Both the position numbers and the translations under genes were made by a program. 64,000 nucleotides of DNA from Psammoneis japonica (Eukaryota): the NCBI GenBank assembly GCA_008632985.1, contig QPGO01000022.1, positions 558,001 through 622,000 on the forward strand. Direction: 5' to 3'. Below, piece after piece: positions 1,932 through 45,208 of this stretch (its first letter is position 1; each line of letters starts with the position of its first letter). Under the pieces are notes generated by a model that searched no databases, was not told where the DNA came from, and saw nothing but the letters and a program-made list of their open reading frames with translations.

Positions 1932-4615
1932 AAGACTGGCCAGATAGAAAGGCACACCCGGAGCTCGAAATAGCTCGTATGGTCGATTTTGAGGTATGGA
2001 CACCGATCGAAAGCTCTTGATCTCCGCTTTCGTATGATGTATTCAACGCAAGCCAACAATGCTTTCTAAACGAATTATAAGCCATTCACAAAAATAACGG
2101 TCAAAAAATTTTATTATAATGGTTTTGACCGTTGAAGCTTGGCGGGAATTTATGTACGGGGAAAATCATGTAGCTGTATTCAATTATATATTAATATCTT
2201 AATTAAATATAAAAGTATGTTCTTTCTTAATACCTTTATTCTCAATTCAATTTTGAAATCCTTTACCTATCTCTCTTTCGAAAAAATCCGACAAAAAATG
2301 GCGCGGCGAGATGAATCGGCCGAAACTAACGAAAGACATCAAGGACGATGAAGCTGTAGAAAAGTTCTACGATTGGCTTTCAAGTCCCAATGATTCACCA
2401 ATATTTCATGAGCATTGCATTAATGTGAACAAAAAGAAACCATCGAAATGCGAGTGTCCAAAGAAGCTAAATTGCAGTTGATGGAGAGCAACGACGTCCG
2501 AACTGTAAAGATGCTTGGCAACTACCTGGTGTACTTTGAAAGGCTAAGCTACGAAGAAACTTACACTACTTTATCATCCTGGATCAAGCATTCTTGTTTT
2601 GTTAAGAAAAACAGTGGTGGCTGTTGCTGTTTTGTGTTGCCGCTGTTGCAATCTGACAACGAGAATGCAGTGACTGTCGAGAACAGTCTCATCTGCTCCC
2701 ATGCTCTCCTCGCATTACTCGGCAAAAACCACAAGTTTTGGAAGAGAGCGAAGTCTCATGCAGAGAACAACATGCTTCCATCACATGGTCTTAAAGGCAG
2801 GAAAGGTCAATCTGCCAACAAGACGTTGGCACCCGAAATTTGCGCGGCGATGCATTCGTTCTTTGAGGAAATAAAAGAGCTTTCAGAACCACGTGCAACA
2901 AGACTGGTTAGAGAAGAAACAGGAGTCGGCTTAAGAGATGAAGACACGTTCGATTTGCCTCCCACCACAAAAAAGCGCGGATTGTACAAACGACACGGAG
3001 AAGACAATGGATGGAGGCTCAAGTCAAACGACCGCGGCAAATTTCTCAAACCCGCACCAATTGCAGGTAAAACCCAACAAAAGACATGCTCCTGGGCACA
3101 GTTTTGTGCTTTTTGGAAGGACAAGCATCCCAACATCGTTGTGAGAAGACCAACTCGGGACATCTGCGATGACTGTTACAAATTCACGAACAGCTTCAAA
3201 ATGAAAGCGAGAAAGGAGAAAGAAAATGAGGGTGGTGAGAGTGACGATGAAGACAACAATGATGACGATGATGAAGATGACAATGAGGAATGCATGGCAG
3301 AGATTGAGGCCCAGGAAAAAGAGATGCTGGAAGCAGCTAAACATGTCGAGTGGGCTCAAAAGCAACGAAAACCAGCCAGCAAGTGCATTGTGGAAGCAAT
3401 GCAACACGCAATTGCAAACACGCCACACGGTCATTGGACTCGAGTGAGGATCGGTGACTGTTGTCAAAATGGGGGGTTGCCTCATTTTGGAGCCGATCAG
3501 CCAGGGGAGACATGCTGCTCCTCACCTTTGACTGTCAATTGCTTTGGAATGGCGGATCCTGCAGGGAAAAAGGAGACGGAAAGTGAGCACAAGGATTTGT
3601 TACACGCGTGCATCTACCACGAGGGTGCTGGCCAAAAGGGAGGTGACAATGTTGCATCCCTCACAATGAAACACTTGCACGATGGTGGGTTGTTGGATGT
3701 TGAAAAGGGTCCGGGTGGAAAGCTTGTGCTGATTTTTGACAACTGCATCGGGCAAAACAAGAACAACACAGTTTTGAAACTCGCTTCCCACCTGGTGGAA
3801 CAAGGATGCTACAAAGAAGTTTGCATCACATTTTCAGTGAAAGGGCACACCAAGAATGCATGTGACAGACTCTTCAACAGTCTGAAGCAAACTTGCCGTG
3901 ACAAGAACATTGGCACCTTCAGCAAACTGTTGAAAGCATTGGATGCTTCTGAGTGTGTCACTGTTGTTGAAGCAAAAGAGGAGGATTTTTTGGGACATGG
4001 AGCTCATTTTGATCAGAATTACAAGAAGTGCAGTGCAGCTGTGAAGCACCACTGCTTTGAAGTGAAAGACTCTTCGAATCCCACAGCAGTGACAATGAAA
4101 GCAGCGGACGGCGAGCCAGAAGTTAGTGAGGATCTCAAAAAGAGGAAGAGTGAATCAATGGATGATGGGAAAGCAAGACTTCAAACAACAAGACCACACA
4201 CCTTAACAGCTCCAGGGATCAAGGACATCAAGAAGGTGGAGCTTTACATGAAGTGTCGGCTGCTTCTGGACAAGGAAGACAAAGACGAGATGTGTCCTCA
4301 TCCTGGAGACGACGTGCTCAATCGAGTTGCAAAAAGCAAGAGAGAGAAGCGGAAGCAAAAGCAGTCGGAGAGCAACGAGCAGAAGGCACGGAACGCCAAG
4401 AAAAAGAAAACTGCTGAAGCAAGTGGGCCTCTTACAGACAGGAGTGCGAACATTGCGCAATGCTGTCTACAAAGCATCAGAACAATTTACAATGTCTCAT
4501 GTGTCCGCACTTGAAATGTCTGCATTTGGTCAAAATTCTTTTCAACGCGTTTTTCTCGAAACAAAGTTTGAGAGCTCGAGAGCGCGCGGGTGTGCCTTTC
4601 TATCTGGCCAGCCTC
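1932..4615 (+). mobile_element. Sola1-type DNA transposon nested in the MULE
   Basis: Perfect 25-bp TIR core CTGGCCAGATAGAAAGGCACACCCG (1936-1960 / 4587-4611). TSD ATTT at 1928-1931 and 4616-4619 matches the AWWT TSD of Sola1. Confidence 0.85.
2298..4514 (+). pseudogene. Sola1-like DDD transposase, degraded
   Basis: ORF 2448-4514 has the motifs DICDDC, LIFDNCIGQNKN and KGHTKNACDRLF. The N-terminus from about 2298 is broken by frameshifts. There are many apparent Tyr->Cys changes (e.g. GETCCSSPL). Confidence 0.8.
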
Positions 4616-6239
4616 ATTTGTTACCGTGCCTCCCTGGATTTGGCGAAACGCTCTACAGAGCTTTCTACACAAAACACACCAGAAAATGTGCTGTTCCGAC
4701 GATGATCGATTTCATCGGCGCATCGACAGCTGTGCCTTGCACCGTTCAGTGGTTGTTCGGGTGCTCGCTGTTGAAGCGCACCATGGTGTTGGAACGGAGA
4801 AAACTGGCAAATTTTTGATTGATTAATCCCCGAGACTGACCAAGTGCAAAATCATCACTTTTTCGGTGGGTGCTGACATGTGTCGTTGATTGTCGTCGCA
4901 TGTTCCGCTCCATTGCGCCCTGCAAGTTATGACATGGAAACTCATGCACATTTTCGTCATTGTCTTGCAATGGCATTGTCTTTCTTGCAGCACAACCGTT
5001 GTTTCTGTCATTTGTGGGAAATGGCTTTTTATTTTTTGCCAGAAATGTGCTCACTCACGGATTGGACTCTTCCTCGTCATCACGCAGGTTCTCAGTCCAT
5101 GCAACACCTTGGTGTTGTTCATTGGTGTCTGTGTGAGGCGTGGTTTGACCACAGCTCTGAGATTCGAGGCAAAGATAGTCTGGTGTCTCATTTTCGGTTG
5201 GGCATCGCTGTTTTATGACATTTTTGGAGATTTTTGGACGGTTGTGTCGATTTCTCACCGCTTGGGCAGATTTGAGTGCATTGACTGTGCTCATTTGGTG
5301 CCACTGAGTAAAGGAGGTAAGCTCCTGTGACAATGTTGTTGCTTGTTGGCATTCAAACTCACTCAATGGGGCTTGTGCTTCGTGCAGGATTTCATCAGTT
5401 CGCGACAGTGTGAATGTCTCCAGCAATGGCATGAGACAAACAGGGTCACAGCGACAAGCACATGCACACAGGAGACACGAAAGAATGTGTGCAAAGGTCA
5501 ATTGGTAAGTTGGTGTTATGATTTTGCTCACAATTGTTGACTTGTCTTGAAATCTGTGTCTCAGATGTTCTCACTGCTTGTGTCTTCCTCCCGCCTCTTT
5601 TCGGCTTCTACAGCAACTGGCTTGCGATCACCTGCCAGCATGGCAGTTCTTGGATTGATGAACTGTGGAACAAATGTTGGGTGTGTCACCCTGACCATAG
5701 AAACGAACGAGGAGAGCCAGCATTCCATGTGTGGCTGGCGCGATCGAGCCGAGAGAAAAGGACCAACACGTCCGATTGTGAAAGATGGAACGAGAAGCCA
5801 TGCAGCAGTTGTGCAACCACAGGGTTTTGTCATGTTACACTCGAAACGTCCCAATAAAAGATTCACTCTACAGTGCTAGATAGCCTTGGGAGTCGTTCAT
5901 GCCGATAACAGCAATGAGCTTGCGGCATGTACATGTACAGCATGTCCCGCCGGTGCGACGGAAAAACGGCACCGTAACAAACGGCCTACATACGACCCTG
6001 GTACATCGTCCGTCTTACTTCCGCGAGAGTCTATGAGGAGACCTTCGGGTGTGTGCGAGCGCGCGCGCGAAGAACGGACGACGCATAGACTCACGATGGA
6101 GAGTGCTTCGCGCGCTCGAATTTCTGGATCTTGTCCGTCCGTCGCTCGACATGCGATGACAAGTCGAAGATGTGCACGCAATCAACCGGCGTGATTTGAG
6201 ATTGATGCTTTTTCACTTTTTTCGTTCGCGTCGCCCACC

Positions 6240-10548: not shown

Positions 10549-10656
10549 GGCCAGCCACGCACGTACATAACATTTCGCGCGTTCCATCCAAGCCAACAGC
10601 ATCTTTCGTGCGCTGCGCGAGCGTACCCGCCCGGTACAGCAGTTTGCGCTCTCACC

Positions 10657-18226: not shown

Positions 18227-19732
18227 TCATTCCTCACCTTCGCACGGCCAAAGGTCGTCAAGTGCGTCGAAGCCACCAGCGTTCAACTCGTCAGTGTCAG
18301 GTCTTAGGGCCAATTGAACTTCGCGCACAAACCGACGTCTAAATCTCTTCACACCGCCTCCGAACAAGGAACAATGTGCTCGCAAGGCTTCTTCCGCGTG
18401 CTGTTTTGCAACTTGGCGGTTTCCTACACACCTCGCACAAAGTGCAGCCTGTACTCTCATGACAATTGCATTCTCATCCAACGGTGGGAGACGAGTCTCA
18501 GCGAATTCGACACATTCCTCCCACTGCGACAATGCCTCACTGGGATTACCAAGTCCATCATATGTGATTGCTCGAAGAATACGCAAGTTCTGTAAATCGC
18601 ATTGAAACCAAAGCGCACCGCTTTTGTCGATATCTATCATTTCGTCCTGTTCGTCTTCAGCAGGCTTCCCAGAGGCTTGCTCAAACAGTTCTGCAAGAGC
18701 TTCCAATCGTTCACTAGGGTCCATCGCCATAAGCTCGTTTTGAACCTCGTCATCAACTACCGGGAAGTCAGGTCCATCATCTTCATCATATTCGCTTACT
18801 CCAATGGCGCCGGGTTCTTGGAAATCCATTTGCAACATTGTCGTTCGTCTCGTGGGACTCTCACAGAGCACATCATGTTCGAGGTAGCTGATACAAATTT
18901 CGTCACCAGCATAAATATCCTGATTGGCCACAAACCACATAACGTCTCCCACAGCAAATCTTGAAGCATTCGGTTTACTATCGTGATTGAAATACGATGG
19001 CAAATGATAGAGTGCCGTTCCATCTAATGCAGCATGCCCTCCGGGACCTGGGTGAACCAGCATTTCTGGACACGTCTCCACAGACAAAGCATTGTATCGA
19101 ATCACTAGATGCAAGCGTTCTATAATGTCCTTGACGTGGTCATCTCTGACAAGGTCCGGCACCTCTAGTAACTTTGAAAGTCGATTTTCTACCTCCACAA
19201 AGACGGCATCATCTTGGCACACCCACTTTGGCAATTTCGCCGCAGTTTCATTGTCGCGAGGGAACAGGTCCGATAGTGTGTCGACCCACAAGGACGGATT
19301 CTCATAAATATCAGAAAGCAGTTTAAGCAACAAAAGCTCATTCGGCTTTGAGTCTTGCTCCTCTTCGTCTTCTTGATGGAACTCCTCCTCGTCCTGGTCC
19401 TCGTTCTCGTCCTCCTCGTCTCCAATGTCATTATCTAGTTCATGGTCGAGTTCCATTTCTTCTCGAGCCGTGAGTCCGTCATGACTTTCACTATCTATAA
19501 CGCATTCCCAGTTCATAACCATGGCGATCGGTTTGGCAACTAGCAAGACGGTTCCCGCCGAAATGTTCCGTCGTGCAAAATAACCTCTTCCGCTTTTCGA
19601 TTCCTCACGACACTCCATCAAATCTTTTGTGGACTGGCTGTCATAGTCTGTTGGAATCATGAAATTGGGACGAGTTGGATGATCTGGTTGACTAGCCACC
19701 AAGGCATCGGCCATGTCCAAGAGCGTCTCCAT
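18227..19732 (-). CDS. SET-domain (SMYD-like) lysine methyltransferase
   Basis: Motifs GRGYFARRNISAGTVLL and SYFNHDSKPNA...GDEICISY, followed by a helical TPR-like C-terminus. Confidence 0.9.
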   Translation of the reverse strand: METLLDMADALVASQPDHPTRPNFMIPTDYDSQSTKDLMECREESKSGRGYFARRNISAGTVLLVAKPIAMVMNWECVIDSESHDGLTAREEMELDHELDNDIGDEEDENEDQDEEEFHQEDEEEQDSKPNELLLLKLLSDIYENPSLWVDTLSDLFPRDNETAAKLPKWVCQDDAVFVEVENRLSKLLEVPDLVRDDHVKDIIERLHLVIRYNALSVETCPEMLVHPGPGGHAALDGTALYHLPSYFNHDSKPNASRFAVGDVMWFVANQDIYAGDEICISYLEHDVLCESPTRRTTMLQMDFQEPGAIGVSEYDEDDGPDFPVVDDEVQNELMAMDPSERLEALAELFEQASGKPAEDEQDEMIDIDKSGALWFQCDLQNLRILRAITYDGLGNPSEALSQWEECVEFAETRLPPLDENAIVMRVQAALCARCVGNRQVAKQHAEEALRAHCSLFGGGVKRFRRRFVREVQLALRPDTDELNAGGFDALDDLWPCEGEE

Positions 19733-21479
19733 GGTGGATTTCGCCTTGCCTCATTTTTTCTGTTTTATTCGTTCCTGCTTGCGTTTCCAGTTTTCAGCTT
19801 TGTGGCGGTAAGTTGAGTCGTCTCCCCGTCATACGTCAGTGCACCGTCCTTCCGCAGCGCCTGAGACGGGGGATGCCATGGATGAGGTTCCTGTGCCCGT
19901 CGGTCCTGGGTCTGAACTGCCGCAGAAGTGCATTTTTTTAAGTTGAAATCAACAATGTGAGATCTGAAAACTCCCCGTGTGCACACAAAGCATCCAAGCC
20001 CGGCTCCCCAGCATCTGCTGTTCCTTCCTGCCCCTTGCTTCTCAACCCCAGCAGGCCAGAACCCCCATTTTGAAACACTCCACAGAGCTTTGTGAACTGG
20101 CACTGGTTGGTCACTTGTTTGTCTTGTTTTGTGTTTTCATTCATGTGCAGGCCTCCAAAACAGCTTTCATCTTGCATGCTCTCATGATGCAAGAATCTGA
20201 CGAAGTGTCCAAGAGACACACCCAGCAGCCAATTTCTTGTTCTGAAGTGGCCTCAGTTTCATCAACTTGCACATGTCCATGTGTTGATTGTGGGCCTGAA
20301 TTTGATCTTTCCCTTGCACCAATCTTGACAACAGCCTCAGCTTGAATCCCATCATCTCAAACAAACCCTGCTCCTGCTTCTGTTTCAATCAGCCTCCAGC
20401 TCAAAGCCCTTGGCTGTGCTGCTGCTGGTGTTCGTGCACAAGAAAGCAAAAGTGTGTTGAGCAGATGAAATGCAATGTGGAAATGGCAAGGGGATCAACA
20501 CAATCATGCCAGCAACACATTTGCTCTGCATTGAGTCATCCTCTCAAATTCCTCACCACACTCCATCAAGTCTTTTGTGGACTGGCTGTGTCACAGTCTG
20601 TTGGAATCATGAAATTGGGGGGAGTTGGATGATCTGGTTGACCAGCCACCAAGGCATCGGCCATGTCCAAGAGCGTCTCCATGGTTGATTTTCTGTTTTG
20701 TTTGTTCCTGCTTGCATTTCCAGTTTTTTCAGTTTCGTGGCGGGAAGTTGAGTCATCTCCCTGTCATGCATCAGTGCACCGTCCTTCTGCGGCGCCCAAC
20801 TGACATGAGGGATGCCATGGATGAGGTTCCTGTGCCCGTCGGTCCTGGGTCTGAACTGCCTCAGAAGTGCATTTTTTAGAGTTGAAATCAACAATGTGAG
20901 ATCTGAAAACTCCCTGTGTGCACACAAAGCATCCAAGCCCGGCCCCCCAGCATCTGCTGTTCCTTCCTGCCCCTTGCTTCTCAACCCCAGCAGGCCAGAA
21001 CCCATTTTGAAACATTCCACAGAGCTTTGTGAACTGGCACTGGTTGGTCACTTGTTTGTCTTGTTTTGTGTTTTCATTCATGTGCATGCCTCCAAAACAG
21101 CTTTCATCTTGCATGCTCTCATGATGTGAGAATCTGACGAAATGTCCAAGAGACACACCCAGCAGCCAATTTCTTCTGAAGTGGCTTCAGTCTCATCAAC
21201 TTGCACATGTCCATGTGTTGATTGTGGGCCTGAATTTGATCTTTCCCTTGCACCAATCTTGGCAACAGCCTCAGCTTGAATCCCATCATCTCAAACAAAC
21301 CCTGCTCCTGCTTCTGTTTCAATCAGCCTCCAGCTCAAAGCCCTTGGCTGTGCTGCTGCCAGTGTTCGTGCACAAGAAAGCAAAAGTGTGTTGAGCAGAT
21401 GAAATGCAATGTGGAAATGGCAAGGGGATCAACACAATCATGCCAGCAACACATTTGCTCTGCATTGAGTTATCCTCTC
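19601..21479. repeat. ~935-bp tandem duplication that includes the 5' end and upstream region of the SET gene
   Basis: 19601-20545 aligns with 20549-21479. Confidence 0.9.
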
Positions 21480-24400
21480 ATGGTGTTTTTGTTTGTTGAG
21501 AGTTCATTGCCACACACAACAAACCAGCAGAGAGTCAGCAGCACAAGCAGATTTTTCTTGGTTGCAAGGAGAGTGTGTTTGATTTGCAGGTGCTGCAATG
21601 GGGCAGACTTGGTTCACAGGTGCTGTTGCTTCCACCATGGAGGAGAGAGTGGGCCTTTTTGGTGGTGTGATGCAGCAGGCAGCAGGCAGCTTCATGATGG
21701 TTGTTGTCATGGCAATGCTGAAAAATGGGTGCTGTTCTCACTTGACTTGTTTTCAGTTGTCATGGCAAGAACCAACTCAACAAAAGCACAAAGGCCATGT
21801 TGGCACTTGACATTCATGTCAAGATGAATGCAAGAATGAGACTGGCGCAGTGAGCTGGCCACAACTGCCCCATTGTCTTCACATGAGGAGAAGGGAAAGA
21901 CAAGCTTGCTTTGCACTGTGTTGTTGTTGTTCAAGTCTGCTGTCAGAACAGTGAGCAAATCAAAAGCAGAGCTGACCCCGGAACAGATTGCATCAAAAAT
22001 TCTGTGTGCCCAGAAAGCATGAAAAGTCCACATGAAGTGTCAATCTTTGGCCTTCTAGTGTGGCTGGTGTGCTCTCTTTGTCCCTGGCAGGTTTTGTCTC
22101 AACTGTCACAGCAGGCCAGATTTTTCCAAGCACAGCACATCTGGCATGGTGGACTTTCCAAATTCAAGTGGCAAACAACCAACACCACAATGTTGTGGCA
22201 TGGTGCACAAAGTCTCTGATGATTGTTGATGCTTGTGGTTGTGTGCTTGTCAGTTGGGCTCACATCTCACCCCAAGAAAGCTTGTGCCCATGTGTTTTTT
22301 CAACATTTTGAAGCTTTTGCATTGTTCTTTTCCATGTCAGCAAGTGAGACAGTTCAACATGCACAAAGCCAGCAAAACACAGCAATGAAAGTGTGGTTTT
22401 TGCAACATGGAAAGTGCCTGAATTCCATCTCCTCCATTCACAATTTTGGCTGCATGCACTCACACAAAATCTTGCCTTGTTGCTGCTTTCTTGAATTTTG
22501 TCAAGATGCAAAGGAGCCATTGGGGGGCTTTGTCAGAGCTCTGTTTTGCTCTTCTGTCAGACATGTTAAAAAAAACAAGTGGGCAGGAATTGTCTCTTTT
22601 GCTTTGCATCAATTCCAGCAGTCAGTGCATGATGCCTCCAGGCTTGGAGTTGAAGTCAACAATGTAAGATCCAAGAACTCCCTGCACATGCAAAGCATCT
22701 GAGAGCTTGATGCCCCCCACCTCTGTCTTTGCTCTGTTGCTGCTTCCCGTGCCCCTTTCTTCACACAGAAAGTGCCCCATGGCTTCACAAACTGCACTGA
22801 TCACTTGTTTCTTTTCCATGTGTTTTCACAGATGCAAGTGCTTCTGAAGCAGCTTTCATCTCACATGTTCATGAGGTGAGCCTGAAAGCCAAAGTGATGC
22901 ATTGCTGCACCAGCACCCAGTGTCATGCTGCTGGTGTGTGGGTGTGGCAGACGTTCCAAATGCAACAAGCAGAGATGATCAAACACAATGTCATGGTGTG
23001 GTGTCAAGTGTTTGAGCAGCCTTCAGAGCTTTGCAAGGAAGATCTTCCCATGCACTTGGTCACCACTTGGTGCCCCAGCAGGTCATTCACAACATCTTGT
23101 TAAAAAGGTGACAATCAATCTGGGGCAGATTTTTCAGGCCAGCCAAGAACCAATGTCACACCAAAATGCAAAATGCTTCAGCACCTGTGTGCAACTCTGT
23201 TGGGTGTGGTTGCAGTCATTTGCCATGCATCGTCTCAATCGTGTTTGGTTTCACCACATGCAAGCAAGGAAAACTGCAGTGGTTGTCTGTCTGTGTGATG
23301 GCTTCCATGCGCATCTTTTGTTCATTCCCACGATCTCCAGCCCAAACCCCCTTGCAAGTGGTGACACCCAATGTCTCATTGCCCATTCAATCATTTCTCT
23401 GTTCTGCCCCCCAAGGCTCTCTTGTTGAGGTGCTCTCTGAGCCATGCTGGTTGACAAAAAGGACAAAATGCTGCAGATTTGTTGGCTTGCTGCCTCTCAA
23501 TGTTGGCTTGCTGCCTCTTGAGGTCATTTGTTCACAGTGGAGGCTGGGCAAGCTGTGTGTGGAACTTGATCCACAACCTGCCTTGAAGTCAGGAAGGTTT
23601 GGCTGTTCAGGGGCCAGATTTGAGTGCAAGCATCATCTGAAGCTGGGGCAGAATGGAAGAGTTTTGGGAGTGAGCAGGCTTGTGCACATGCAACTCCTTG
23701 TTTTCCCCACTCTTGGGGTTCATCACTTTTGAGGCCCACTTTCTCATGTCCTGCATGACTGGTCTGTGTGCATGGTGGTTTGTCATGGTTGAATTTGCAA
23801 GCAGTCACGCACTGATCTTTCACATCCACCTCAGGGAGGAGCTTGACTTTAGGATCAAGTGATTTGCAGTGGCACTCATGTGCCTTTGTTTGAGTTTCCA
23901 GGCTGGTGCAGTGGCTTGCCCTGACTGGAAGCCTTGCTGCTTTTGCATTTGGGTGATGCATGTCATCCACACAATGAGTGACTGGTGTGTGCCTGGTGAA
24001 GTGCAAAGCTGATTAGAGAGTCATTCATGCCACTGTCAACATCTGCCAAGAGGGCCTTGGGCATGGATCTCACTCAATCTTTTGTCTGTTGGTCATCACA
24101 GGCATGTTTCTTGACATGACAGGCCCATGTGAGTGGGTTCTGAACAATCATGGAGTTTTTGCCTGTGACAATTGCTGGAAGAGGTGACTGACAAAGGAAT
24201 TTTGAAATTGGAAGGAGAGGGCACTGGCCCATTGGGCCATTGCAGCTTTTGTTCAATGACCTTCTTGACATTCTTGTCTGGTGAACTCTTGCCTTGTTCT
24301 TTTGCTTGCAAGTGCAGGCCAAGATGGCTGAAGCAGGGGCTGTTTTGCTTTCATTGTTTCTCTGGTGTGAGACAGGAAGAGGACAAGCAACAAAGGCCAT

Positions 24401-27400
24401 GTTGAAGTTGTTGTTTGGGGGATTGCATTGCCCCACAAGAATTCTCCAGTTTGCACACCATTGCCACCACTGCAGTGCACTGTTTGACTGCAAGTGGGCC
24501 CCACACTTGTTGTTCTTGAGGAAGTGATGCTCCTGTGCCCAGCTTTGATCCACTCTAGATGCACGTTGCTTGCAGAATTGGGAGGTGACATTTTGGAGAG
24601 TCTGGCAGGTGTCATGTGCCTCTTTTGACAAATGGCATGAAGAGGTCAGTGGTGTGTCGTTTGCCATGCACAGAGCTCTGGCATGTCCAAGAGCATCTCC
24701 ATGGTTGTTTGTTCCTGCTTGTTGCATTTCTGGCAGTTTTCAGTTTTGCAGTGGGAAAGTGAGTTGTCTCCCCATCATGTGTCAGTGCACTGTCTTCAGG
24801 GGCATCAGGGACAAGGCTCCTGTGCCCATTGGTCCTGGGCATGAACTGCTCCAGAAGTGCATTTGGAGCACTCCCAACTGGGAGGTCTGCAAGTGGTGCA
24901 GAAGATGATGACATTTGGAGTGAAAACAACAAGGTGAGATCTGAAAACTCCCATGTGCACACAAAGCATCCAAGCTTGCTCTGGTGTGGATGCCTCTTTT
25001 TTACAAAACCCAGCCCCCTGGCAACACTTGCCCAAACCCCCTTCTGCTGTTCCTTTCCACCCCTTGCTTCTCAACCCCAGTGGGCCAGAGCCTGTGAAAA
25101 TGTTCCAGGGCTGTGTGGACTGCAATGGTTGGTCAAGCCTTTGACAAAAGTGTGCAAGACACACCCAGCAGCCAATTTCTTCTAAAGCAGCAGCTTCTGT
25201 CTCAAAAATCTTGACAAACAGCTTCAACTTCAAGCTGGACAAAATTCCCATCTTGGACACACCATGTTGCTTCTTTTTCAAACAGCTGTCATTGCAAACC
25301 CCTTGTGCTGCTGCTGGTGCTCATGCACAAGAAAGCAGCAAAAAGTGTGTTGAGTGGATGAAATGTGATGTGGAAATGGTGAAGAGATCAACACAATCAT
25401 GCCGCTGACATGATTGCTGTGCATTGAGTCATCTCTTGGTGTTGTTTGTAAAAGCAGATTTTTCTTGGTTGCAGTGTGGAGCACATGTTTGACACACAGG
25501 TGCTGCACAGAGCACAGACTTGGTTCACAGGTGCTGTCACTTTAACCATGGAGGAGAGAGTGGGCCATTTTGGTGTGGCGCAGGTGGCAGCATGATTGTC
25601 ACGGCAATGCTGAAAAAAGATGATGTTCTCACTAAACTTGTTTTCAGTTGTCATGGCAAGAACCAGCTCAGCAAAAACACAAAGGTCATGCTGGCTCTCT
25701 TGACATTCACATCAAGATGCACCCAAGGACAAGGCTGGCATTGAGCAGAGTGGCTTTGGCACCACAGCACCCAAAGCCACCACAATTGGTGCCATTGTTT
25801 TTGCACAAGGAAAAGTGAAAGATGAGCAATGCTTGCTTTGCACTGTGTTGTTGTTGTTCATGCATGCTGTCAGAATTGTGAGCAAATCAAAAGCAGAGCT
25901 GACCCCACATTAGATTGCATCAAAAATTCTGTGTGTGCCAGAAAGCATGAAAAGTCCACATCAAGTGTCAATCTTCAGCCTTTTTGTGTGACTCTGGTGT
26001 TCTCTCTTTGTCCTGGGAGAAGGTTTTGTCTCAACTGTCACAGTGGGCTAGATTTTTTTACAATTGTCAGAGCCACCACACTGGCATGATGGACGATCCA
26101 AATGCAAGTGACAACCAACCAACCACAAATGTTGCACCCCAAGAAAGCTTGTGTGCTCACCAGACATGCTTTTCTCAACATTTTGGATCTTTTGCATTGT
26201 TCTTTTTCATGTCAGCAACTTCTGAGACAGTTCAACATGCACAAAGCCAGCAACACAGCAATGAACATGTGGTTTTTGCAACATGGAAAGCACCTGCATT
26301 GCATCCTCTCTGTCCAAAATTTTGGCTGTGTGCACTCACACAAAAATCTTGCCTTGTTGCTGCTTTCTTGAATTTTGTCAAGATGCAAAGGAGCTGTGGA
26401 GGGCTTTGTCAGAGCTCCATTTTGCTTCAAAACAAACAAGCAAGACATTGTTCTCTTTTGCTTTGCATTGATTCAAACAGTCAGTGCGCGACACCCCCGG
26501 GCTGAGAGTCACAAAAAAGCAAAAATGGGCTCCTGACAAACAGCGTGTGTTGAACATTTTCATTTGTCCTCATTTATTTGCTGCACATTGCTCTAATTTT
26601 TCAGCTCACTTTTGCTTTCTTGTTCCTTCTCATTGAAGTCAGAAATGCTCCATTTGCTGGATTGTGCACTTGGATTTGTTTGGCATGGCAAAAAACAAGC
26701 AAGCAGCTTTCAAAGCTTGGAAGGGAAAATGATTTTCATTGTCAGCATTTGATGTGCTTTTCAAAATGATGCACAGCAGGCATCTCTTGCACAGGAGCCA
26801 GCATCTCTGCCATCACATGGCTGCAATCTGAGCTCAAGAATGAGCTTGAAATTGATGGCTCCAGGTTGACCAAATGGCCAAAGATTGTTGGCTGCAGCCA
26901 CCTTGCTGTTTGTTTTCTAAACAAGAGGTTGACAGGCTTCCCAGTGCCCATGCCAGCACATGATGTGCTGGGGCAAGGCCTTGGACTGAACCAACATGTG
27001 GCTTGCCATTTCCCAACATTTTGTGTGTGATGTGATTGGAGTTGCGCTTGACTGTTGTCTCGGTGTTCCAGTGCTGTGGTCAATTTTTTTTTTTTGGGGG
27101 GGGGGGGGGGGGGTGCATCTTTTGTGTGCATCCCCTGTCCCCACGTGCAGCTGACAACAACAAAATGCCCTTCTGGCAACTCCGTCAATGCCCCTGCTTG
27201 CATGGAAAGGCTTTAAAAAGCACAAAGCCAGTGCAAAGATGTCCACCTGCAGCTGGGCTCTTGACGATGCTGCCGAAAGCAACAACCATGAACCCCACAT
27301 TCTTTGCCTTGTTTGACTTTCCTTGCTGGGACTGAATTGTTGTTTTTTAAGCCAGCTTGCCTTGACAAGAGGTTTTGTCACCTTTGTGTTTGGACCCTTG

Positions 27401-28490
27401 TTTGTCATCTGCAGAATGAGCAATCAGGAAGGCAGGCATCATCTGCCTGGCAAAATGTCAAAGTGCATCCTGTCTTTTGGGAGCTCCGCAAAGCCAATTG
27501 GAGAGTCATTGACATCATTGCAGACTTCAGTGTTGGCACAATTTTTTTGTGACCACAGCTGGGTGCACAACAATGTTTGCTGAGAGGACCTTGGCATTGA
27601 TCTCACTGAATCTTTTCTTGCTGGTTCTTGTCCCAGGTGATGAAATGTGTTTTTTGATCATGTGACAGACCCACAGGAGTGGGTTTGTGGAACAATCACA
27701 GATTTTTTTAATGTGGAAGGAGAGGGCACATTGGCCATGTTCCTGTTTGATGAGCCCTTGTTTTCTTTCACTTGCAAGTGCAGGTGAAGATGGCTGAAGA
27801 AGCAGGCACTGCTTTCTTCTCATTGTTTCCTGGTGAGATTGATGAATGAGCAACAAACAAGCAACGAAGTTGTTTGGAGATTGTGGCTGCCCCACAAGAA
27901 CTCTTCAGCTTGTGTTGCCACTGCAGTGCATTGTCCAAGTGCACATGGGCATGATCCAAAACTTGTTCTTGAGGACACACTCCTGTGCAAAGTTTTGATT
28001 TGCTCCAGATGTGGGTTGCTTGTAGATTGGGAGGCAAGATTTGAGAGTCTGGCAGGTGTGGCATCTCTGTCAATGGATGATGTGAACACGTCTGTGCAAT
28101 TTGCTTTGCATGGAGCCCCAGATTCTCAAAACTGTTTGTGCTTTGAAAGAAGTCATCAGCTTGGCAACAGATCATGGCATCAGTGGCAGAGCTCAGTTGT
28201 CACATTGGAAGCAATGAATTTGTCAAAGAGATTGACAAACAATTGCAGAATTTTGGTGTTGGCCACGGCTCTCAGGGAGACAGCTAAGATCTGTTTTTGT
28301 GAGCAACACCCACAAGAAAACGATGGTCCAAGGCAGTTCATCTGAGGCCTTGGGGTGCAACTTGTCTTCAGAGTGGGTTTGGTCATGATCATTGATGGCC
28401 AACAGGGTCCACTGTTAGAAAGCTTGCAGACCAGTCTTCCTCATCAAGGATCTTGCTGATGGCAAAAGGTAGAAGTGGGATGATTGGATG
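19760..28490. repeat. Degenerate repeat block strongly depleted in CpG and TpA, with internal diverged duplications
   Basis: Almost no CG or TA over ~8.5 kb. 20660-22630 resembles 24680-26490, and 24060-24620 resembles 27500-28070. Confidence 0.8.
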
Positions 28491-30993: not shown

Positions 30994-31199
30994 TGGGGAA
31001 GTCTCCAGCCAGCTGCTGGCTGAAGAAATTTGTGTAGAAATTGTACTGAAAGAGTCTGTCAATCTGTGCGTTAGGGGGTTTTGGTGAACGCTGGACAGAC
31101 TCGTCTTCTTTTGCGTACGTAAAAATTGCACTTGCAAAACCCCCAAACGCACTGACGAGCAGACTTTTTTCAGCCAGCAGCTGGCTGGAGACTTCCCCC
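30994..31199. mobile_element. MITE (~206 bp) with ~34-bp TIRs and candidate 5-bp TSD AATCT
   Basis: GGGGAAGTCTCCAGCCAGCTGCTGGCTGAA at 30995 recurs in reverse complement, ending at 31198. AATCT lies at 30989-30993 and 31200-31204. Confidence 0.75.
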
Positions 31200-32349
31200 A
31201 ATCTGGAAAATCTGAATCGCAATCTCCAAATCACAAATCCACCAATGAATGGAATCCACTGCACCACACTTCGCATGTTTCACCGCGCAAAATTGGAAAT
31301 AGGAGTTCGGTGAACGCGAACTGCCGATGTGTGCGGCCTTCATCACAAGTCTCTCTCACATCTGTCACATTTTCCAATTTCGAGTTGGGTCGACCGCTGC
31401 CTTTTCCATTCAACATTGTCGATTGTCGCCACAGATGGAAGCCAAAGCTAAATCTTCATCTGCCAGCTGTGCTCAAGATGTCAGGTCCCAGGAAGCAAAA
31501 AAGGCAAGCGAAATCCCAAAGAACGGGTGCAAGGAGGAGGGGAAACAAAAGGTGGAAAAGCGCAGAAGAGTCGACAACGTGTTTGTGGCCCATGCACCTG
31601 CTCTGCTGGTGAACCACCAATCCATGAATGCTTTGATGGCTCAGAAGAGCCAGCTTGACTTTGAGAAATCTGCGAGTCTGGAAAAGAAGAAAGCACTGCC
31701 AATGATCAAGGAAGTCTGAAAGGTGGCTGCAGATGCTGTGCATGTGCAGACAAATTGCAGCAAGTCTGAACACATTGCACTGACCAAAACTCCCCATTGT
31801 CAGGTCATGGTGCTGCTTTGGCTGACCAAATTGGTGCCAACTCCTCTCTGCATCTGGCTGATGACATGAGCAGCTTTCTCCAATCCTGGCTCCCACGGCG
31901 CTCTCACCGCTCACCGCTGCTCAGAATCACCTTCAGCGTGTGCATCAGGATGTTCTCCATGGTTGTCTGCAACAGAGTGATGTCTTCTGCAGTCAACTGT
32001 TGGATGTTGCTGCAGGTTTTGAAGCAGAGAGTCATCTTCTTGCAAGTGTCATGGCGGCCAACACGTGTGGAAGCTGAAAGCTGAGCCCACACTTTTGACA
32101 GCTTGAGGACCAACGTCTGCAGAAGGAGTCGTGCGAGGTAGAGGCAGTGGTGAACACACCGAATCCTGCCTCTCTAGAGTTTGAATATCCGGTTTATCGA
32201 AATGTTGCCCGGGTGTTCTTCTACTGTAAACCCCATTCCTCTTTTGACCGTATCTTACTTCCACATGGATCATTGCCGACCAATACCGAAAAATGCCTAG
32301 TAGTATGACTTTTTAAATCACTAGATGAAATGCCACTGAGTTCCAGTTT

Positions 32350-36614: not shown

Positions 36615-37658
36615 CTAGTGGTGACTAGTGATCGAATAGGACAGGGCGCCGAGGAGTGCTAGTGCGATACCCATTAGGTTCGTACCGGTGAAAGGATGAC
36701 CACCAAACATATAGTGGCCTGATACGATAATACCCAGCCTCCTGATCGCATCGCATGCACCGTAGGTAATCGGAGCAACGAGTCCAACGAACATGAACGA
36801 CAAAACGTATTCTACATGGTAGGCAACCACAGCCATGTATGACAACCACAGAGGCGGATCCCTATATTTTGGGTCCATTGACTTTGATCCGCTGTATTTC
36901 TCTCGAACCGAATGACTCACGGCCATCATACTTGTAATGACAAAACCAACAAAGACCATCGCACGTTGCGCTTCCGGTCCAGCAATTCCTGTTTTGCTCA
37001 TTATACGTTTGCTGCTTACATTTAAAGCGCTTTGGGCTGCCATTGAGGCGATTGAAGCAAGAAATCCGACCTTTTCAAAGTGCGGGTGATCCCAGGACGC
37101 AGCCGCAATCCCTAGTGCAATTGGTATCAACGAAAGCAGAACTGGGATCTTTGGTAACGCCTTTTGACCATCGAGCAACAAAGTTAAAAGAACTGTCACT
37201 AGCGGAATGCCACATTTGGTTGTATAAGTCAAGGAAATTCCAATTCGGTCAAGACTGACCGAATTGGAGTAGTTGGCAAGAAAAAGAAATGAAGCCGGGA
37301 TTATAAAATCTGGAACGGCGGCAATCGTGTCACTGAGTCTTCCGATTACGTCAAAGTCTTTATGAGCTAGCAAACCCAACAAAAGAGATCCCCTGAATCG
37401 CCTCAGCGTCAGAAGGTTAGGGCGGGACAAGGAAGTAGCGACTGAAACCTCTTGTGTGGATTCAGAGCCAGGTAGCGGTGGTTGCCATTTCAGGAACTTT
37501 GTAGTGGAGTATGTTGTGAGGAGCGCAGACGATGCAATCCAAAGCCCGCCAACAACGTTCACATTATTCGCAACAGAAGTCAGTACTCCCGGTGCTGCAC
37601 CCACAATCTCAGGAGCAGCGGATGACATCGTTTGGAAGGCCGGTGCAGTAGGTGTCAT
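36615..37658 (-). CDS. Triose-phosphate/phosphate-translocator family (DMT superfamily) transporter
   Basis: 8-10 TM segments. Motifs SLTYTTKCGIP and VAPITYGACDAIRR. Confidence 0.75.
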   Translation of the reverse strand: MTPTAPAFQTMSSAAPEIVGAAPGVLTSVANNVNVVGGLWIASSALLTTYSTTKFLKWQPPLPGSESTQEVSVATSLSRPNLLTLRRFRGSLLLGLLAHKDFDVIGRLSDTIAAVPDFIIPASFLFLANYSNSVSLDRIGISLTYTTKCGIPLVTVLLTLLLDGQKALPKIPVLLSLIPIALGIAAASWDHPHFEKVGFLASIASMAAQSALNVSSKRIMSKTGIAGPEAQRAMVFVGFVITSMMAVSHSVREKYSGSKSMDPKYRDPPLWLSYMAVVAYHVEYVLSFMFVGLVAPITYGACDAIRRLGIIVSGHYMFGGHPFTGTNLMGIALALLGALSYSITSHH

Positions 37659-38038
37659 TGATCATGTCACGGCGCGGCGACCGGCGACCAACCAAAGATT
37701 TCGACTGACGATTGAGAATTTGAGAGGCATGACACAACATCACACACGCGCGCGACGCGATGTTGATGTTCGAGTTCTCTTTGTTTGATGTCATGACCAG
37801 ACCTAAGCTCATTACCCATTAGGTCTGTTCCAGAAAATCAATTCGAATGAAGGGAAACAACTGCGTACTACAAGAGCACAATCAGAAAAGGTAGAACAAG
37901 TAGCTACAACGTAGGGTGTTTAATTGCAGCGCGGAAATAACTGGACTGGAAACGAAAGGCAGCGACAAACTTGTGGGAAATCAACGAGTTGTCAACTCTC
38001 GGAACCCCCAAGCTCTCAGCCATCTACTGGATATCACG

Positions 38039-41000
38039 TCACTTTTTGCCACGGCGACGAATTCTAGAAATGGCACCACTCCCGGGCTTCCCTGAATCCC
38101 GTTTTGGACTCTTACTCACAGCGCTACCCGTCGAAGATGTAGTCCGGTGGCTTTCACTCCGCACCATGGTTTGTTGAAGGTTATCGAGAGTCTCTGTTGA
38201 ATCAGCTTCCACTTTTGCATACTCTGGCTCAGGTGGCCAGTCATAGAACCGTTGATACATCAAAGGAGAGTATGGCACAACAATGTGGTGAACCTTTGTT
38301 GGGTCGATCTGTCGGTATGCTGCTTGGCTGTTGCCCGACACGTTACTCTGGAAAAACGGCTCTTCTTCTGGCTCCTTCTCACAAGCACTTTTCTTAACCC
38401 GTTCGGGCTTTGGCCTGTTTACAAAGCGACGGATCCGATTACCAAGGGCTAACCTAATAACGAGGTTCTGGATATCGGACGAAGTGATTGGTTAGAGCTG
38501 GGTGTCAACGCTTACAACGAAGGGCTTACGGAAGGTTCGTACACACTCGAACTTACCTGCGGTCCAACGAGGACCAACCCAACAACGAAGAGAACCGGTC
38601 GCCAAGGGAATAGATGCAGAACGACAGCCACTAAAGGAACGAAAATGCTTATCCAAAATGAAAGGATTGGATCTTTCCAAGTAAAGATGTTGTACAAAGC
38701 GCGAATACCTTGAAGAAAAATCAAGGCTATGCCAACAATCGGTTCAAGGAACAAACCAACTTTCGCCACAGCTTTGTTTGAATGCGAAAATTGTCCGCAC
38801 TGCAGGCTTCTATCAAGCTGTGTCTTGGCATCCTCCTTCACCTGCCGCTTTTTGACCTTTCGACGTGAAATAGTCCTGGAAAATCTAGCGTTTGGGTACT
38901 TTATGTCGTAGACTTTGTCGTTAAACCAATGAAGTAGAATTGCATTCAGCCGTCCCTTAACCTTTTGCAACTCATCTGTTAGCTTCTTTTCCGATTTTCG
39001 CACGATGTCCATGTTCTGTGGGGGTGGCGGCCTTTGTGATGGCGGCACAGCCGTCTCCAACACGTCTACGTCGTTCTCTGAATAGGCAAAATTCTCGGAA
39101 GACGATTTATTCAGTCCACTAAATTGGTTGTGGGGAACACTGAATTCGTCAAGGACCGAAGAACCGTCTCCAAGTTGTTCGATCGCGTCAATCTCCCCAT
39201 CATCATCATCTTCGTCACTCTCCAACAAATCTACTTGAAGGGCACTCATCCTCCGCATCTTCTTTTCCGAAGATAAACGGGAAACCAGTGATTCCTTAAC
39301 AGTAGATTTTGGATAATCATCGACAAAGTCTGAAAAAGGGAACTCAAGATGACCATGGTTTACCACACCGGAGACGTAGCTGTCGTCGTATAGTCCAAGC
39401 ATTCTCAACAACTCTTTGCCTTTGGGTTGATTAGTTGTGAACACGTATTTCTCTAACGACACATCAAGAAATCTGTAGAACAGCTTCTCATCTTTGAAAG
39501 AATGCTCTTTCTTAACGTGCTCGAAAAGCTTGTATGACTTAACAAGCGCACGTCCAATTCGAACTGCATCCTTCCTTGACTTGGCAATGTTTGAGTTCAC
39601 GAGAAAATCAACTCCGTCTGTACCGGTGAACACATTCTTGTAGGACCTCAATCGATGTTTGTAGGTTCGAACAGGAACACCCGTCCTCATTCGCTCGGCG
39701 ATCTCCCGAAGAGTCAAGCTAGTTTCAGTTTGTGAGGTAGGATCATCCTGTGAGCCCATTGAACGAGCTGAACCTTCTGGAGATATCAACGTGCTGGAAC
39801 TGCCATCGAACACCGGGTTGTAAACCTGCATACCGATTGGTGCAATACATGGCGGCTTTTGATCAGGACCACCAAACATTACCGCGTGCATCATTTGTTC
39901 CCATGTCGGCGGTTGGAATCCCCTCTGCCCCGGGCCGTCCATGCCGTATCTTGCATAATTTTTCCAAAGGTAAAGGAGCAGGAAAGTCAAAAAGTGTCCA
40001 GGGAGATATGCGACGGAGTTTTGATAAACGCAGTGCATCCATGCAGCAAAGACAAACAAAGAAATGATCGGATTCTCCCAAACAACAATTTTCTTGGATT
40101 CTGGCCTCAAAATCATCCGGATTATCATGATTCGGGTAAAATTGATCTCTCGCATTGTCGCCTTTAGTTGCTTGAAAGAAAAGTGTCCTTGCATGTGTTT
40201 TCCATGGACGGTCTTTGCAACATTCTGAAAGGCCGTTTCATCATAGCAGCGAACTGTCGTACTTCGATTGGGCTGGATCTTGGGTACCTTTTTAGGCAGA
40301 TATGATAACATGGCAGATCTTTCACTTTTCCAGTCGAGACGGAATCTCAACCGTACCGAGCCTCTCTGTCGACGTGCGTAAACGTGAGCTGATTCTCGAA
40401 GTGGCAGCGTCACATCATAAGTCGAGCTATGTCGAAGCCTGGCGATGTCCACAACTACCCTACCAGCAAAATCGTCCCTCTCCTTCTCTCCGTCGTTGTC
40501 GAAGACACCGACGTAGAGCCGAGCATAAGCGTGAAAAAGCGGAAAGATACAGGCACGGCGCATTTTGCAAAGCCACATTGGGTTTGCCACATCGGGAATC
40601 GTGTCTGTTGAAAATGCGTGCGCACCGCAGACAATGTAAACGACAGGATCAGTTTCTCCGACCACATCTAACTTTGGGAGCCCGAGGCACTGTAACACCT
40701 CAACTCGGAGCGTCCCAATTTCTTCACCCATCCTCGAAGGTACTCTGAGGTCGTGGAAATGAGAGGAAGGCTTCTTCATTTCCAGTCGCAGTTCATCTCG
40801 ATTGAACCGCACATTCGGGTAAGCGTAGCTTGGCTGCACAGTAAACTCTACGTCATCACCTTTCACCTTGCGCGCAATATCTTCAGCTTCAGTGAGAGCG
40901 GTTGCCATACTGGCCCTGCCCTGTCCCTTCAAGTTCATCTTTTCCCGAGCCATTTTCGATGCTAGAGCACTGCGTTCTCTCCCTGAAATCCGATTTCTCG

Positions 41001-41655
41001 AGAAGCGACCGGGACTCTCTTTGGTTGCGGAAGCTCCTGGATTCGACGACATGAGCCTACCCAATTTGACGAATGCTTCAACCCATAGGGACTTTTCGAC
41101 CGAGCCTCGCGGACAACGGAAGACAAAGCTCACTCTGGAATCAGAGCCAGCCTTTGAAAGGTACTTATCGAGTCCAACAGAGCTATTGAGTACGGAAGCA
41201 ACAGACTCTTCGTCGTCATCATCGTCCCCCATCTCCTTTACACCAACATTATGTGCGTCCACATCAACGATAAACGACGGAGAATTCTCAACATCACGAG
41301 CAGTCCAATCAACAGTCGCGGGAAAATGTATAGTAAGGGTCTTCGAATCGAGCGAGTACCCACTGTTGTCAATACCTGAACTATCGTGAAAGCTGCTAAG
41401 AGCCTTTTTGTCCTTGCCTATGGCGTGATGACACGAAAAGCTCCCGTCAGAAATGTTTAGTATAACATATCGCCGTTTCCAGCCACCCATACCACGTTGC
41501 TTCTTTTGGTAGAGGGAACCCTCCAAGGATTCTCGCGAAGACTCAGATCTCTGCGGTCTCCGAAACGAGTCGTTGTGGTCAAGGCTGTAATCTTCTTCAT
41601 GTTCTTCCGAGACTGACGGAATTTGTGACTTGCTGGAAGAAGGTCGAGCTAGCAT
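38039..41655 (-). CDS. PH-like/C2/DEP-domain membrane protein, copy 1; intron 38468-38556
   Basis: PH-like LEGSLYQKK..WKRRYVIL, C2 GTLRVEVLQCLGLPKLD, DEP FTGTDGVDFL..FKDEKLFYRF, and an MCTP-like TM end (FTWKDPILSFW..VGPQ|N). Confidence 0.85.
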
Positions 41656-41876
41656 GTTGCTTTTTCTTTTCAACGGGGACTAATGCCTTGCAGATAGGAA
41701 ATAAAGGTGAGGGCGGAAGCGACGGGTTGATGCAACGGGAAAAGTGTATACCAGTGCTGAGAACTACTTTGGAATTGTATCTTTTTTGGTACCGGTATCT
41801 CGATCCTCTCGTGTTGGTGTTGACCTCGTCCCACGTTGTTGCTTTCAAGCAGTAGCAAAGTCGTCTCCATGGTGCT

Positions 41877-44672: not shown

Positions 44673-45208
44673 GGCCAGCCACGCACGTACATAACATTTC
44701 GCGCGTTCCATCCATCCAAGCCAACAGCAATCTTTCGTGCGCTGCTCGAGCGTACCCGGTACCGGTACAGCAGTTTGCGCTCTCACCATGACGGATGACA
44801 TCGTTTGGAAGGCCGGTGTAGTGGGTGTCATGTCACGGCGACCGGCGACCAAAAGATTTCGACTGACGATTTGCATCAATCATCACATCCGAGTGTCATC
44901 ACATACCGTACCACGCGATGTTGGATCTTGATGTTCGAGTTCTCTTTGTGATGTCATGGCCAGACCTAAGCTCATTACCCATTAGGTCTGTTCCAGAAAA
45001 TCAATTCGAATGAAGGATGAAGGGAAACAACTGCATACTACAAGAGCACAAGCAGCAAAGGTAGAACAAGTAGCTACAACGTAGGGTGTTTAATTGCAGC
45101 GCGGAAATAACTGGACTGGAAACGAAAGGCAGCGACAAACTTGTGGGAAATCAACGAGTTGTCAACTCTCGGAACCCCCAAGCTCTCAGCCATCTACTGG
45201 GTGTCACG

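Follow-up and report, generated by a model that had tools for sequence, protein, structure and literature searches.

TpA and CpG loss from a duplicated SET gene 5′ end lying in gene-free DNA of the diatom Psammoneis japonica

The loss of the dinucleotides TpA (TA) and CpG (CG) was investigated in a stretch of 64,000 nucleotides from Psammoneis japonica (GenBank assembly GCA_008632985.1, contig QPGO01000022.1, positions 558,001 to 622,000, forward strand). This stretch is called the window below, and its own coordinates are used. The 5′ end of an intact SET-domain gene is present in the window as two head-to-tail tandem copies. Copy A is attached to the gene and kept its TA and CG, while copy B lies in the adjoining gene-free domain and lost them, TA completely and CG for the most part. 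The likely cause is an accelerated, context-specific set of transitions that strips TA and CG from gene-free and transposon DNA. The comparisons below demonstrate the polarity of the changes and show that they are confined to gene-free and transposon DNA, that they arose in place after duplication, that TA was lost first, and that TA flanked by a pyrimidine (Y) and a purine (R) survived. The SET duplicate is a rare internally controlled measurement, in which the same sequence can be read inside and outside the domain. The features are listed in Table 1.

Table 1. Features of the window. o/e, dinucleotide count versus the expectation from base composition; ORF, open reading frame.
Feature	Positions	Strand	Description
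SET-domain/TPR gene, intact	18227..19732	-	501 aa; ATG 19732-19730; ORF with translation; no intron needed
Copy A, gene-proximal	19600..19875		133 bp from the start of the SET coding sequence, with 5′ untranslated region/promoter; 5 TA, 15 CG; "before" state
Copy A, distal	19876..20546		1 TA, 7 CG; almost TA/CG-free already when duplicated
Copy B, SET 5′ end	20548..20814		0 TA, 7 CG in 267 bp; "after" state
Copy B, distal	20815..21480		98.8% identical to A after purine/pyrimidine recoding
Copy C	24682..24864		Older, more diverged copy: about the first 7 SET codons plus upstream sequence; opens the second large unit
Purged domain, gene-free	19940..28285		8346 bp; 24 TA (o/e 0.04), 45 CG (o/e 0.10)
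Nested tandem duplications in the domain	unit 1 ~20548-24680; unit 2 ~24641-28200; partial copy 22643-22870
Control duplicate D1/D2	37619..41808 / 44792..48966		4.2 kb, 97–98% identical; intact 1055-aa DEP/C2 ORF in each
Reverse-transcriptase element relic	51800..55550	-	TA o/e 0–0.3, CG o/e 0.4–0.9; ORF 53014-54840
DUF7869 element relic	2250..5750	+	TA o/e 0.05–0.3, CG o/e 0.2–1.2; ORF 2424-4511
Depleted intergenic stretch, short	31000..32250		TA o/e 0–0.4, CG o/e 0.3–0.9
Purged domain to window end	62300..64000		Starts just upstream of the zinc-finger gene 61025-62107

Tandem copies of the SET 5′ end

Copies A (19600-20546) and B (20548-21480) were 92.9% identical over 955 columns of a pairwise alignment. 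The duplicated unit starts 133 bp inside the SET coding sequence and continues through the start codon and the upstream region to 670 bp beyond. The coding-derived part of copy B occupies 20548-20682, with the equivalent of the ATG at 20682-20680. The frame of copy B is broken by a 2-bp insertion, and its translation shows Y30C, S14G, and R21P relative to SET.

All five TA of the gene-proximal part of A were gone from B. The changes were T>C at 19644 and 19693, A>G at 19767 and 19833, and T>G at 19809. Fourteen CG of this part could be aligned, the 15th lying in a 17-bp stretch found only in A. Nine were lost in B: seven by transition to TG or CA (19770, 19783, 19820, 19827, 19835, 19853, and 19867) and two by transversion (19609 and 19671). 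The other five were kept (19708, 19724, 19806, 19846, and 19858). An earlier reading made from the sequence alone (the sequence-only reading) had described the loss of all five TA, four by transition and 19809 by transversion, and the alignment agreed on each count. Three of its five TA positions were right. For the other two, given there as 19766 and 19832, the changed bases are 19767 and 19833, 19766 being the T of its TA. The CG sites that it listed were correct but incomplete. Its statement that most other positions are identical was borne out, apart from four indels of 2, 17, 2, and 4 bp.

Divergence between the copies was uneven, with 22/259 (8.5%) in 19600-19875 versus 16/666 (2.4%) in 19876-20546. 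The TA and CG dinucleotides of A cover 38 positions, and 14 of the 22 substitutions in the 259 columns fell on them (hypergeometric P = 2.9e-8). The off-target substitutions (8/221, 3.6%) did not differ from those in the remaining unit (16/666, 2.4%; P = 0.34). The excess divergence of the proximal part is therefore accounted for by the TA and CG positions of A. The direction of change was from the A-state to a non-A-state in 14 of 16 cases (P = 0.002). Two CA<->TG doublets separate the distal parts (20190-1 and 20426-7), so the distal part was nearly, but not fully, purged at duplication.

The ancestral state inside the gene was investigated with the SET protein and its orthologs. The 501-aa protein gave a Pfam SET match of 2.3e-11, above the cut-off, and weak TPR matches. 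It had 199 homologs, the best being 66% identical, with a coverage of 99% of its length. Their named sources are pennate diatoms (Nitzschia, Pseudo-nitzschia, Cylindrotheca, and Bacillariaceae), and the N-terminus ME.LLD.ADALVA is common to the orthologs. On the basis of these sources the window was taken to be nuclear DNA of a raphid pennate diatom. Both the domain and full-length orthologs were found, as expected of a SET-domain protein. The N-termini of the best 40 of 120 listed SET orthologs, all diatom proteins, were aligned. Tyr30 (TAT, 19644) is Tyr in 20/40 and Cys in none, and Arg21 (CGT, 19670-1) is Arg in 37/40 and Pro in none. Arg42 (CGT, 19609) is Arg in 18/40, Lys in 12, and Gly in one. 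Ser14 (19693) is variable, with Ser in 5/40, including the closest ortholog, and Gly in one. The closest ortholog among these best 40 agreed with A at all four in-gene residues. Judged by the 40 orthologous proteins, the A-state is ancestral at the four in-gene sites, two TA and two CG. The sequence-only reading had relied on the intact SET ORF by itself to fix the ancestral state of the two TA sites inside it. This argument failed, as both TA changes within the ORF are non-synonymous and not stop-related.

Upstream of the gene, the orthologous outgroup proposed in the sequence-only reading could be used only in part: the proteins gave the A-state at the four in-gene sites, but the DNA loci were too distant for the upstream sites. 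Of 29 SET loci from metagenomes (162 kb), even the closest encoded a protein only 56% identical, and the upstream DNA was unalignable. Copy C was informative for CG. Four upstream CG of A (19770, 19819-20, 19827-8, and 19834-5) had opposite products in B and C, TG versus CA, and CG was therefore ancestral at those four sites. The changes in B that can be taken on these comparisons as securely polarized amounted to two TA and six CG.

Besides 19809, three A-private changes were seen upstream: the 17-bp insertion and changes at 19736 and 19798. The 17-bp stretch (19738-19754) lies just upstream of the SET ATG and is absent from B; copy C is without 15 of its 17 bases. It may be a post-duplication insertion in the 5′ untranslated region of the functional gene, or the result of parallel loss.

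The 4.2-kb duplicate D1/D2, which is of similar age to the A/B pair, served as a control. It carried 73 substitutions in 4157 aligned columns (1.8%). TA differed at 18/157 sites (11 one way and 7 the other) and CG at 18/251, with 7–9% for other dinucleotides, and no CA<->TG doublet was found in the 4157 columns. Its two non-coding parts had diverged by 3.9% (875 aligned bases) and 7.8% (116 aligned bases), and in them TA differed at 10/45 sites and CG at 8/61. The losses in the A/B pair were significantly higher than in this control, both for TA (5/5, Fisher P = 3.9e-5) and for CG (9/14, P = 4e-7). TA loss thus exceeded background, as judged against a single control duplicate (5/5 vs. 18/157).

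The proximal part of A is duplicated too (276 bp), and it keeps 5 TA and 15 CG. Selection on the promoter of A could contribute to this sparing. Because D1/D2, with an active gene, and the proximal part of A were untouched, the trigger would appear to be location in silent DNA and not duplication as such. The sequence-only reading had proposed that host DNA is affected once it lies inside a repeat domain. This held for a gene-free, silent domain but not for repetition as the trigger. The TA o/e of genic DNA was ~0.5–0.6.

The sequence itself was compared with contigs of a public run (X1; word depth ~65). They reproduced 20809-30000 with 0–2 differences per piece. An X1 contig was exact over 17001-19723 and stopped at a 42-bp stretch common to A and B. 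The distal part of A had a low X1 contig depth (3.5). One X1 contig over B carried A's letters at two places (21087 and 21262), which was read as bubble-popping between near-identical copies. These two points and the small sample of five TA would favor an artefact, whether through errors made in base calling or polishing where the DNA is heavily modified, or through small-sample chance. Such an origin is nevertheless very improbable. The X1 contigs agree with the assembly as described, chance was excluded at P = 3e-8, and the same signature was found at the protein level in two other elements. Inside the domain, the assembly and X1 differed at four sites (23808, 27215, 27232, and 27275), all of the TA/CG<->CA/TG class and unpolarized. 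About 46% of random transitions there would be of this class (P ~0.05), and these differences are a hint only. Two X1 joints, 20311>25207 and 20519>25877, had sides of 20–22 letters.

Conversion in gene-free and transposon DNA

The gene-free domain at 19940-28285 takes up all of the space that separates the SET promoter from the 3′ end of the neighboring gene. From base composition, ~576 TA and ~465 CG were expected in it. TA o/e was 0.01–0.08 and CA/TG o/e was 1.6–2.1, at a GC content of ~47–48%. Among 81 ORFs of at least 70 aa from three purged domains, no credible Pfam match was found; the single weak match (HPS3_C, 0.0078) was a chance one. A source of the domain elsewhere in the window was searched for by BLAST after purine/pyrimidine recoding, and only internal copies were obtained. 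Matches of 24–55 bp in that search are meaningless in a two-letter alphabet.

The nested tandem duplications recorded conversion within the domain. Units 1 and 2, an older pair of paralogs, were aligned over 1769 columns in 41-column windows of at least 65% identity; 1671 columns were ungapped and held 294 substitutions. There were 43 CA<->TG doublets versus 2 AC<->GT control doublets, which need the same two transitions in the other order (P = 1.5e-6). Identity between the units increased from 63–80% to 83–94% after purine/pyrimidine recoding. CA<->TG doublets are expected where each copy resolved an ancestral TA or CG independently. Read in this way, the alignment showed that TA and CG were converted in place, after the duplication.

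The same signature was investigated in two transposon relics. The ORF of the reverse-transcriptase relic had a weak RVT_1 Pfam match (2.7e-4). A word-indexed protein search with it returned nothing at 1e-5, and a full HMMER scan gave 1601 matches, the best at 1.2e-114. The ORF has 0.3% Tyr, 6.2% His, and 4.1% Cys, and the homologs have 0.8–4.9% Tyr. It was aligned with 30 of 150 listed homologs (ranks 1–24 plus six further long ones; short fragments were excluded), and a Tyr-consensus column was one with Tyr in at least half of the homologs. At the eight Tyr-consensus columns the relic has one Tyr, five Cys, and two His, with the codons TGY/CAY. The polymerase motif Y-x-D-D is now C-I-D-D. Other consensus residues were kept: Phe 16/17, Leu 38/46, Trp 4/4, and Arg 11/15. 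A T-ending codon precedes each of five further replacements, two N>D, two T>A, and one K>E; these represent TA>TG across the codon junction.

The ORF of the other relic had a Pfam DUF7869 match of 1.8e-18 and 60 homologs. It belongs to a diatom multi-copy family with several copies in Pseudo-nitzschia. In the alignment with the best 32 of the 60 homologs, 12 Tyr-consensus columns were occupied by four Tyr, six Cys, one Met, and one Gly. Two Tyr invariant in 32/32 homologs are now TGC TGC. Phe was kept at 11/12, Leu at 23/25, and Arg at 10/13 consensus positions. In both relics together, consensus Tyr was lost at 15/20 positions, 13 of them to Cys or His, and Arg at 7/28; Phe was kept at 27/29, Leu at 61/71, and Arg at 21/28.

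These records also bear on the idea that the domain never had TA and CG, or was held free of them by selection, for instance through avoidance of a nuclease or an RNA sensor. Joint avoidance of CpG and UpA, reportedly found in some RNA viruses, would be a precedent. Such selection or inborn composition is hardly credible here. The domain is non-coding, without a Pfam match, and derived from ordinary host sequence, and its 43 doublets represent independent conversion in each copy. The changes ruin invariant residues of transposon proteins, and positive selection at every one of hundreds of sites is implausible.

The reverse-transcriptase relic also showed a strand asymmetry. On the plus strand of 52000-56000, the GC skew was about +0.4 and the AT skew was +0.25 to +0.37. 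Pyrimidines therefore predominate on the sense strand of the relic, whose ORFs contain much Pro, Ser, and Leu. This skew is unexplained by the TA/CG process.

TA and CG were not lost together. In the four further depleted stretches, TA was at or near zero while CG o/e was still 0.3–0.9. No 1-kb bin of the window had a CG o/e below 0.5 with a TA o/e above 0.2. Judged by these bins, TA loss was shown to be separable from CG loss and faster.

The target of TA loss was investigated from the contexts of surviving sites. Among the surviving TA of 19940-28285, 17/24 were YTAR, a flank in which neither strand reads T-A-pyrimidine, versus 23% expected from CA/TG sites (20% in genes; P = 1e-6). In all five depleted stretches, YTAR accounted for 26/58 surviving TA (P = 2e-4). 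Tyr codons are always T-A-Y, and Tyr>Cys was found 12 times (including Y30C of copy B) versus two cases of Tyr>His. A>G at T-A-Y would leave products oriented YTGY and RCAR. The purged DNA had 714 of these versus 486 of YCAY+RTGR, as compared with 1581 versus 1380 in normal DNA (odds ratio 1.28, P = 3e-4). Three of the four TA transitions of copy B fit the same rule. The target is likely to be 5′-TAY. A transcription-strand bias was considered as the cause of the Tyr>Cys excess, and the T-A-Y motif was preferred, as it explains the surviving TA contexts too.

Assuming near-equilibrium in the big domain, TA loss would be ~80 times and CG loss ~43 times the ordinary transition rate. This estimate used 1916 CA/TG sites, each able to regenerate TA or CG by one transition. 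The A/B pair gave the same order of rate, with all TA and 9/14 CG lost at 2.4% non-target divergence.

Hardly any TAA or TAG, or their complements, are present in the purged DNA (19940-28285 and 62300-64000), and many spurious ORFs of 100–220 aa occur there. These are rich in Cys, His, Gln, and Trp, and gene finders could call them proteins.

Proposed mechanism and alternatives

The following sequence of events is proposed. A tandem duplication would have copied the SET 5′ end with part of the adjoining gene-free domain. Copy B, a normal host sequence, would thereby have been placed inside that domain. In such domains TpA would be converted to TpG or CpA, and CpG to TpG or CpA, at a rate tens to about a hundred times the local background; nearby dead transposons would be treated likewise. 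Copy B would then lose TA and most CG, and the gene-attached copy A would keep them. The process would be aimed at silent chromatin, probably heterochromatic or methylated, and not at duplications as such. The CG half would most simply be deamination of 5-methylcytosine (5mC). The TA half would be a separate activity, changing A to G where the A sits in 5′-T-A-Y.

The most economical reading of the TA half is adenine-to-inosine deamination on DNA, and this step is tentative. It was favored because A>G changes fall on the T-A-Y strand, the neighbor preference is of the TadA/ADAT type, and a route through N6-methyladenine (6mA) is unlikely. The 6mA route was set aside on the report, in an excerpt of PMC12695648, that the diatom P. 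tricornutum has 5mC and no 6mA. No deaminase was found among the 29 large window ORFs scanned against Pfam. It is a possibility, still doubtful, that pennate diatoms, or this one at least, run a genome-defense hypermutation by DNA adenine-to-inosine conversion at 5′-T-A-Y in silent chromatin, which would clear TpA from transposons and from whatever other DNA comes to lie there. As part of the same, equally uncertain reading, the adenine activity would act alongside 5mC-driven CpG decay, but faster and independently.

A confinement of the changes to gene-free and transposon DNA would also follow from exclusion of repair, in place of an active mutator. TA and CG lesions would then occur everywhere, be corrected in genic chromatin by epigenome-targeted repair, and be left in silent domains. 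The low genic TA o/e, itself only ~0.5–0.6, agrees with this, and an excerpt of a preprint describes MSH6-Tudor fusions in some stramenopiles (bioRxiv 10.1101/2024.10.15.618488). The effect size is hard to reach by lost repair alone, with o/e 0.04 and 5/5 TA gone at ~2.4% background, which is ~40–100 fold. In addition, the tight T-A-Y specificity looks like a sequence-reading activity, and non-target sites in the domain evolve no faster (8/221 vs. 16/666). This explanation is considered unlikely, though it is the least improbable of the alternatives.

A second alternative is that double-stranded transcripts underwent ADAR-style A-to-I hyperediting and were then reverse transcribed, in addition to ordinary CpG decay. 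RNA adenosine deaminases prefer a 5′ T/U neighbor, which agrees with the A>G changes seen on both strands, and one affected element encodes a reverse transcriptase. However, copy B arose by tandem DNA duplication, as did units 1 and 2; all have their flanks and order kept and are not retrocopies, and conversion continued in place after duplication. The DUF7869 element shows no reverse transcriptase in the Pfam scan of the large window ORFs. RNA editing is therefore regarded as very unlikely.

Several observations weigh against accelerated transitions in silent DNA as proposed here. At three upstream TA sites, copy C has B's letter, and these three remain unpolarized. Copy C is not a clean outgroup for TA, because it sits in the purged domain and cannot keep TA; at 19767, the flanks predict TG in both copies under the T-A-Y rule. 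At 19809, B and C have a T/G transversion in common versus A, and it is more likely, from the three copies, that G was ancestral and that TA was gained in A. Two CG of B (20736 and 20790-1) are without a counterpart in A. The site 19693 was lost despite its supposedly refractory CTAG context. The sequence-only claim that TpA is lost at least as fast as CpG stood window-wide (depleted bins; Tyr 15/20 vs. Arg 7/28) but not within the A/B pair, where the difference was not significant (5/5 vs. 9/14, P = 0.17). The 162 kb of related diatom metagenome contigs, almost all genic, contained no purged domain and only one 500-bp bin below a TA o/e of 0.15. If 6mA is absent, as stated for P. tricornutum in the excerpt of PMC12695648, one easy route to adenine-specific damage drops out. 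The records all come from one 64-kb window, and X1 may be the assembly's own sample, in which case its support is not independent.

Relation to known systems

Repeat-induced point mutation (RIP) of filamentous fungi changes C:G to T:A, mostly at CpA, which creates TpA and lowers GC; it affects both copies of sizeable duplications and requires a RID/DNMT-like enzyme and the sexual cycle. The process in the window resembles RIP in its accelerated transitions in non-genic, transposon, or duplicated DNA, its dinucleotide signature, and the ruin of coding capacity. It differs in base change, as the TA half is A:T>G:C (4/4 TA transitions in the pair; 13/15 lost Tyr codons to Cys or His); only the CG half has the base change of RIP. 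It differs in target, since RIP acts on CpA and raises TpA; here TA o/e is 0.01–0.08 and CA/TG o/e 1.6–2.1 at ~47–48% GC. Finally, RIP is triggered by duplication, whereas here the 4.2-kb D1/D2 and the proximal 276 bp of A were spared. Fungal RIP is the closest functional analog, although base change, dinucleotide target, and duplication dependence all fail. In an excerpt of PMC9998398, diatom DNMT4 enzymes are described as related to fungal RID and of unknown function. Transposon methylation by DNMT5 is documented there for P. tricornutum (PMC9998398).

Methylation-driven CpG decay is similar in its CG to TG/CA transitions in silent DNA (7/9 losses in B; opposite products in B and C). It leaves the loss of TpA, in the window the earlier of the two losses, unaccounted for and explains the slower half of the signature only. 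The CG o/e of 0.03–0.15 is also lower than is usual in methylated plant or animal repeats.

ADAR hyperediting and fungal A-to-I editing of the ADAT2/3 type have a 5′-U preference, and the natural site of TadA is U-A-C-G. The TA half resembles these adenosine deaminases in that A is read as G with a 5′ T or U, and the pyrimidine 3′ of A in TadA/ADAT sites is similar to T-A-Y. A>G with a 5′ T was the pattern found in the window: changes were at TA only, and those at codon junctions were all behind T. The adenosine deaminases act on RNA, or on single-stranded DNA after engineering, whereas here chromosomal DNA is changed in place. APOBEC and AID offer a parallel in their host-driven, context-specific hypermutation of mobile DNA (retroelements), but act on C (G>A/C>T at TC, CC, or WRC). 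They work during reverse transcription or transcription and do not touch TpA. On the adenine-deamination reading, the hypermutation would match no described system.

To our knowledge, all described host-driven DNA hypermutation systems (RIP and AID/APOBEC) deaminate cytosine. No description of TpA-directed hypermutation, in diatoms or elsewhere, was found in the full-text literature searched, subscription journals being outside its scope, and the wider phenomenon appears to be new. If the proposal is true, chromatin-restricted TpA removal via A:T>G:C would be a new chemistry for genome defense. Fungal RIP and APOBEC-type cytosine deamination would then have their first natural A:T>G:C counterpart, and an activity that edits adenine in DNA, with a defined preference for T-A-Y, would exist in nature. 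Such TpA removal would also explain how old diatom transposons escape similarity searches. Gene prediction would be biased, as few TAA and TAG stops would leave long spurious ORFs in purged DNA.

Further features were observed in the window, which is gene-dense, with long intron-free ORFs and a GC content of 44–58%. The Pfam scan of the 29 large ORFs found PTPA, a PhyH-type dioxygenase, DnaJ, a triose-phosphate transporter, APS kinase, two copies of the DEP/C2 protein, a prephenate-dehydrogenase-like protein, and a C2H2 zinc-finger protein. At 62240-62286, where the 5′ end of the zinc-finger gene borders on the purged domain, there is a CG-rich microsatellite of the CGAGCG type with periods of 18 and 22.

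In the region of 24866-24905, copy C carries 49 inserted bp that A and B lack, and the core of this insertion spans ~37–40 bases. The X1 word depth of this core was ~790 versus ~65 elsewhere, with many different flanks. It is a short sequence with a dozen or more genome copies, and it may be an end of a small mobile element or the trace left by one. At the 3′ end of the PhyH-type gene (28805-28906), X1 showed ten differences plus a 1-bp insertion within ~100 bp, at half its depth; these come from a divergent second haplotype or from a close paralog.

A second duplicated block (9175-10664 / 43206-44795) adjoins D2 and has a normal TA and CG content. It contains arrays of a 102-bp repeat (9601-9805 and 43631-43937) and of a 75-bp repeat (10019-10541 and 44157-44603).

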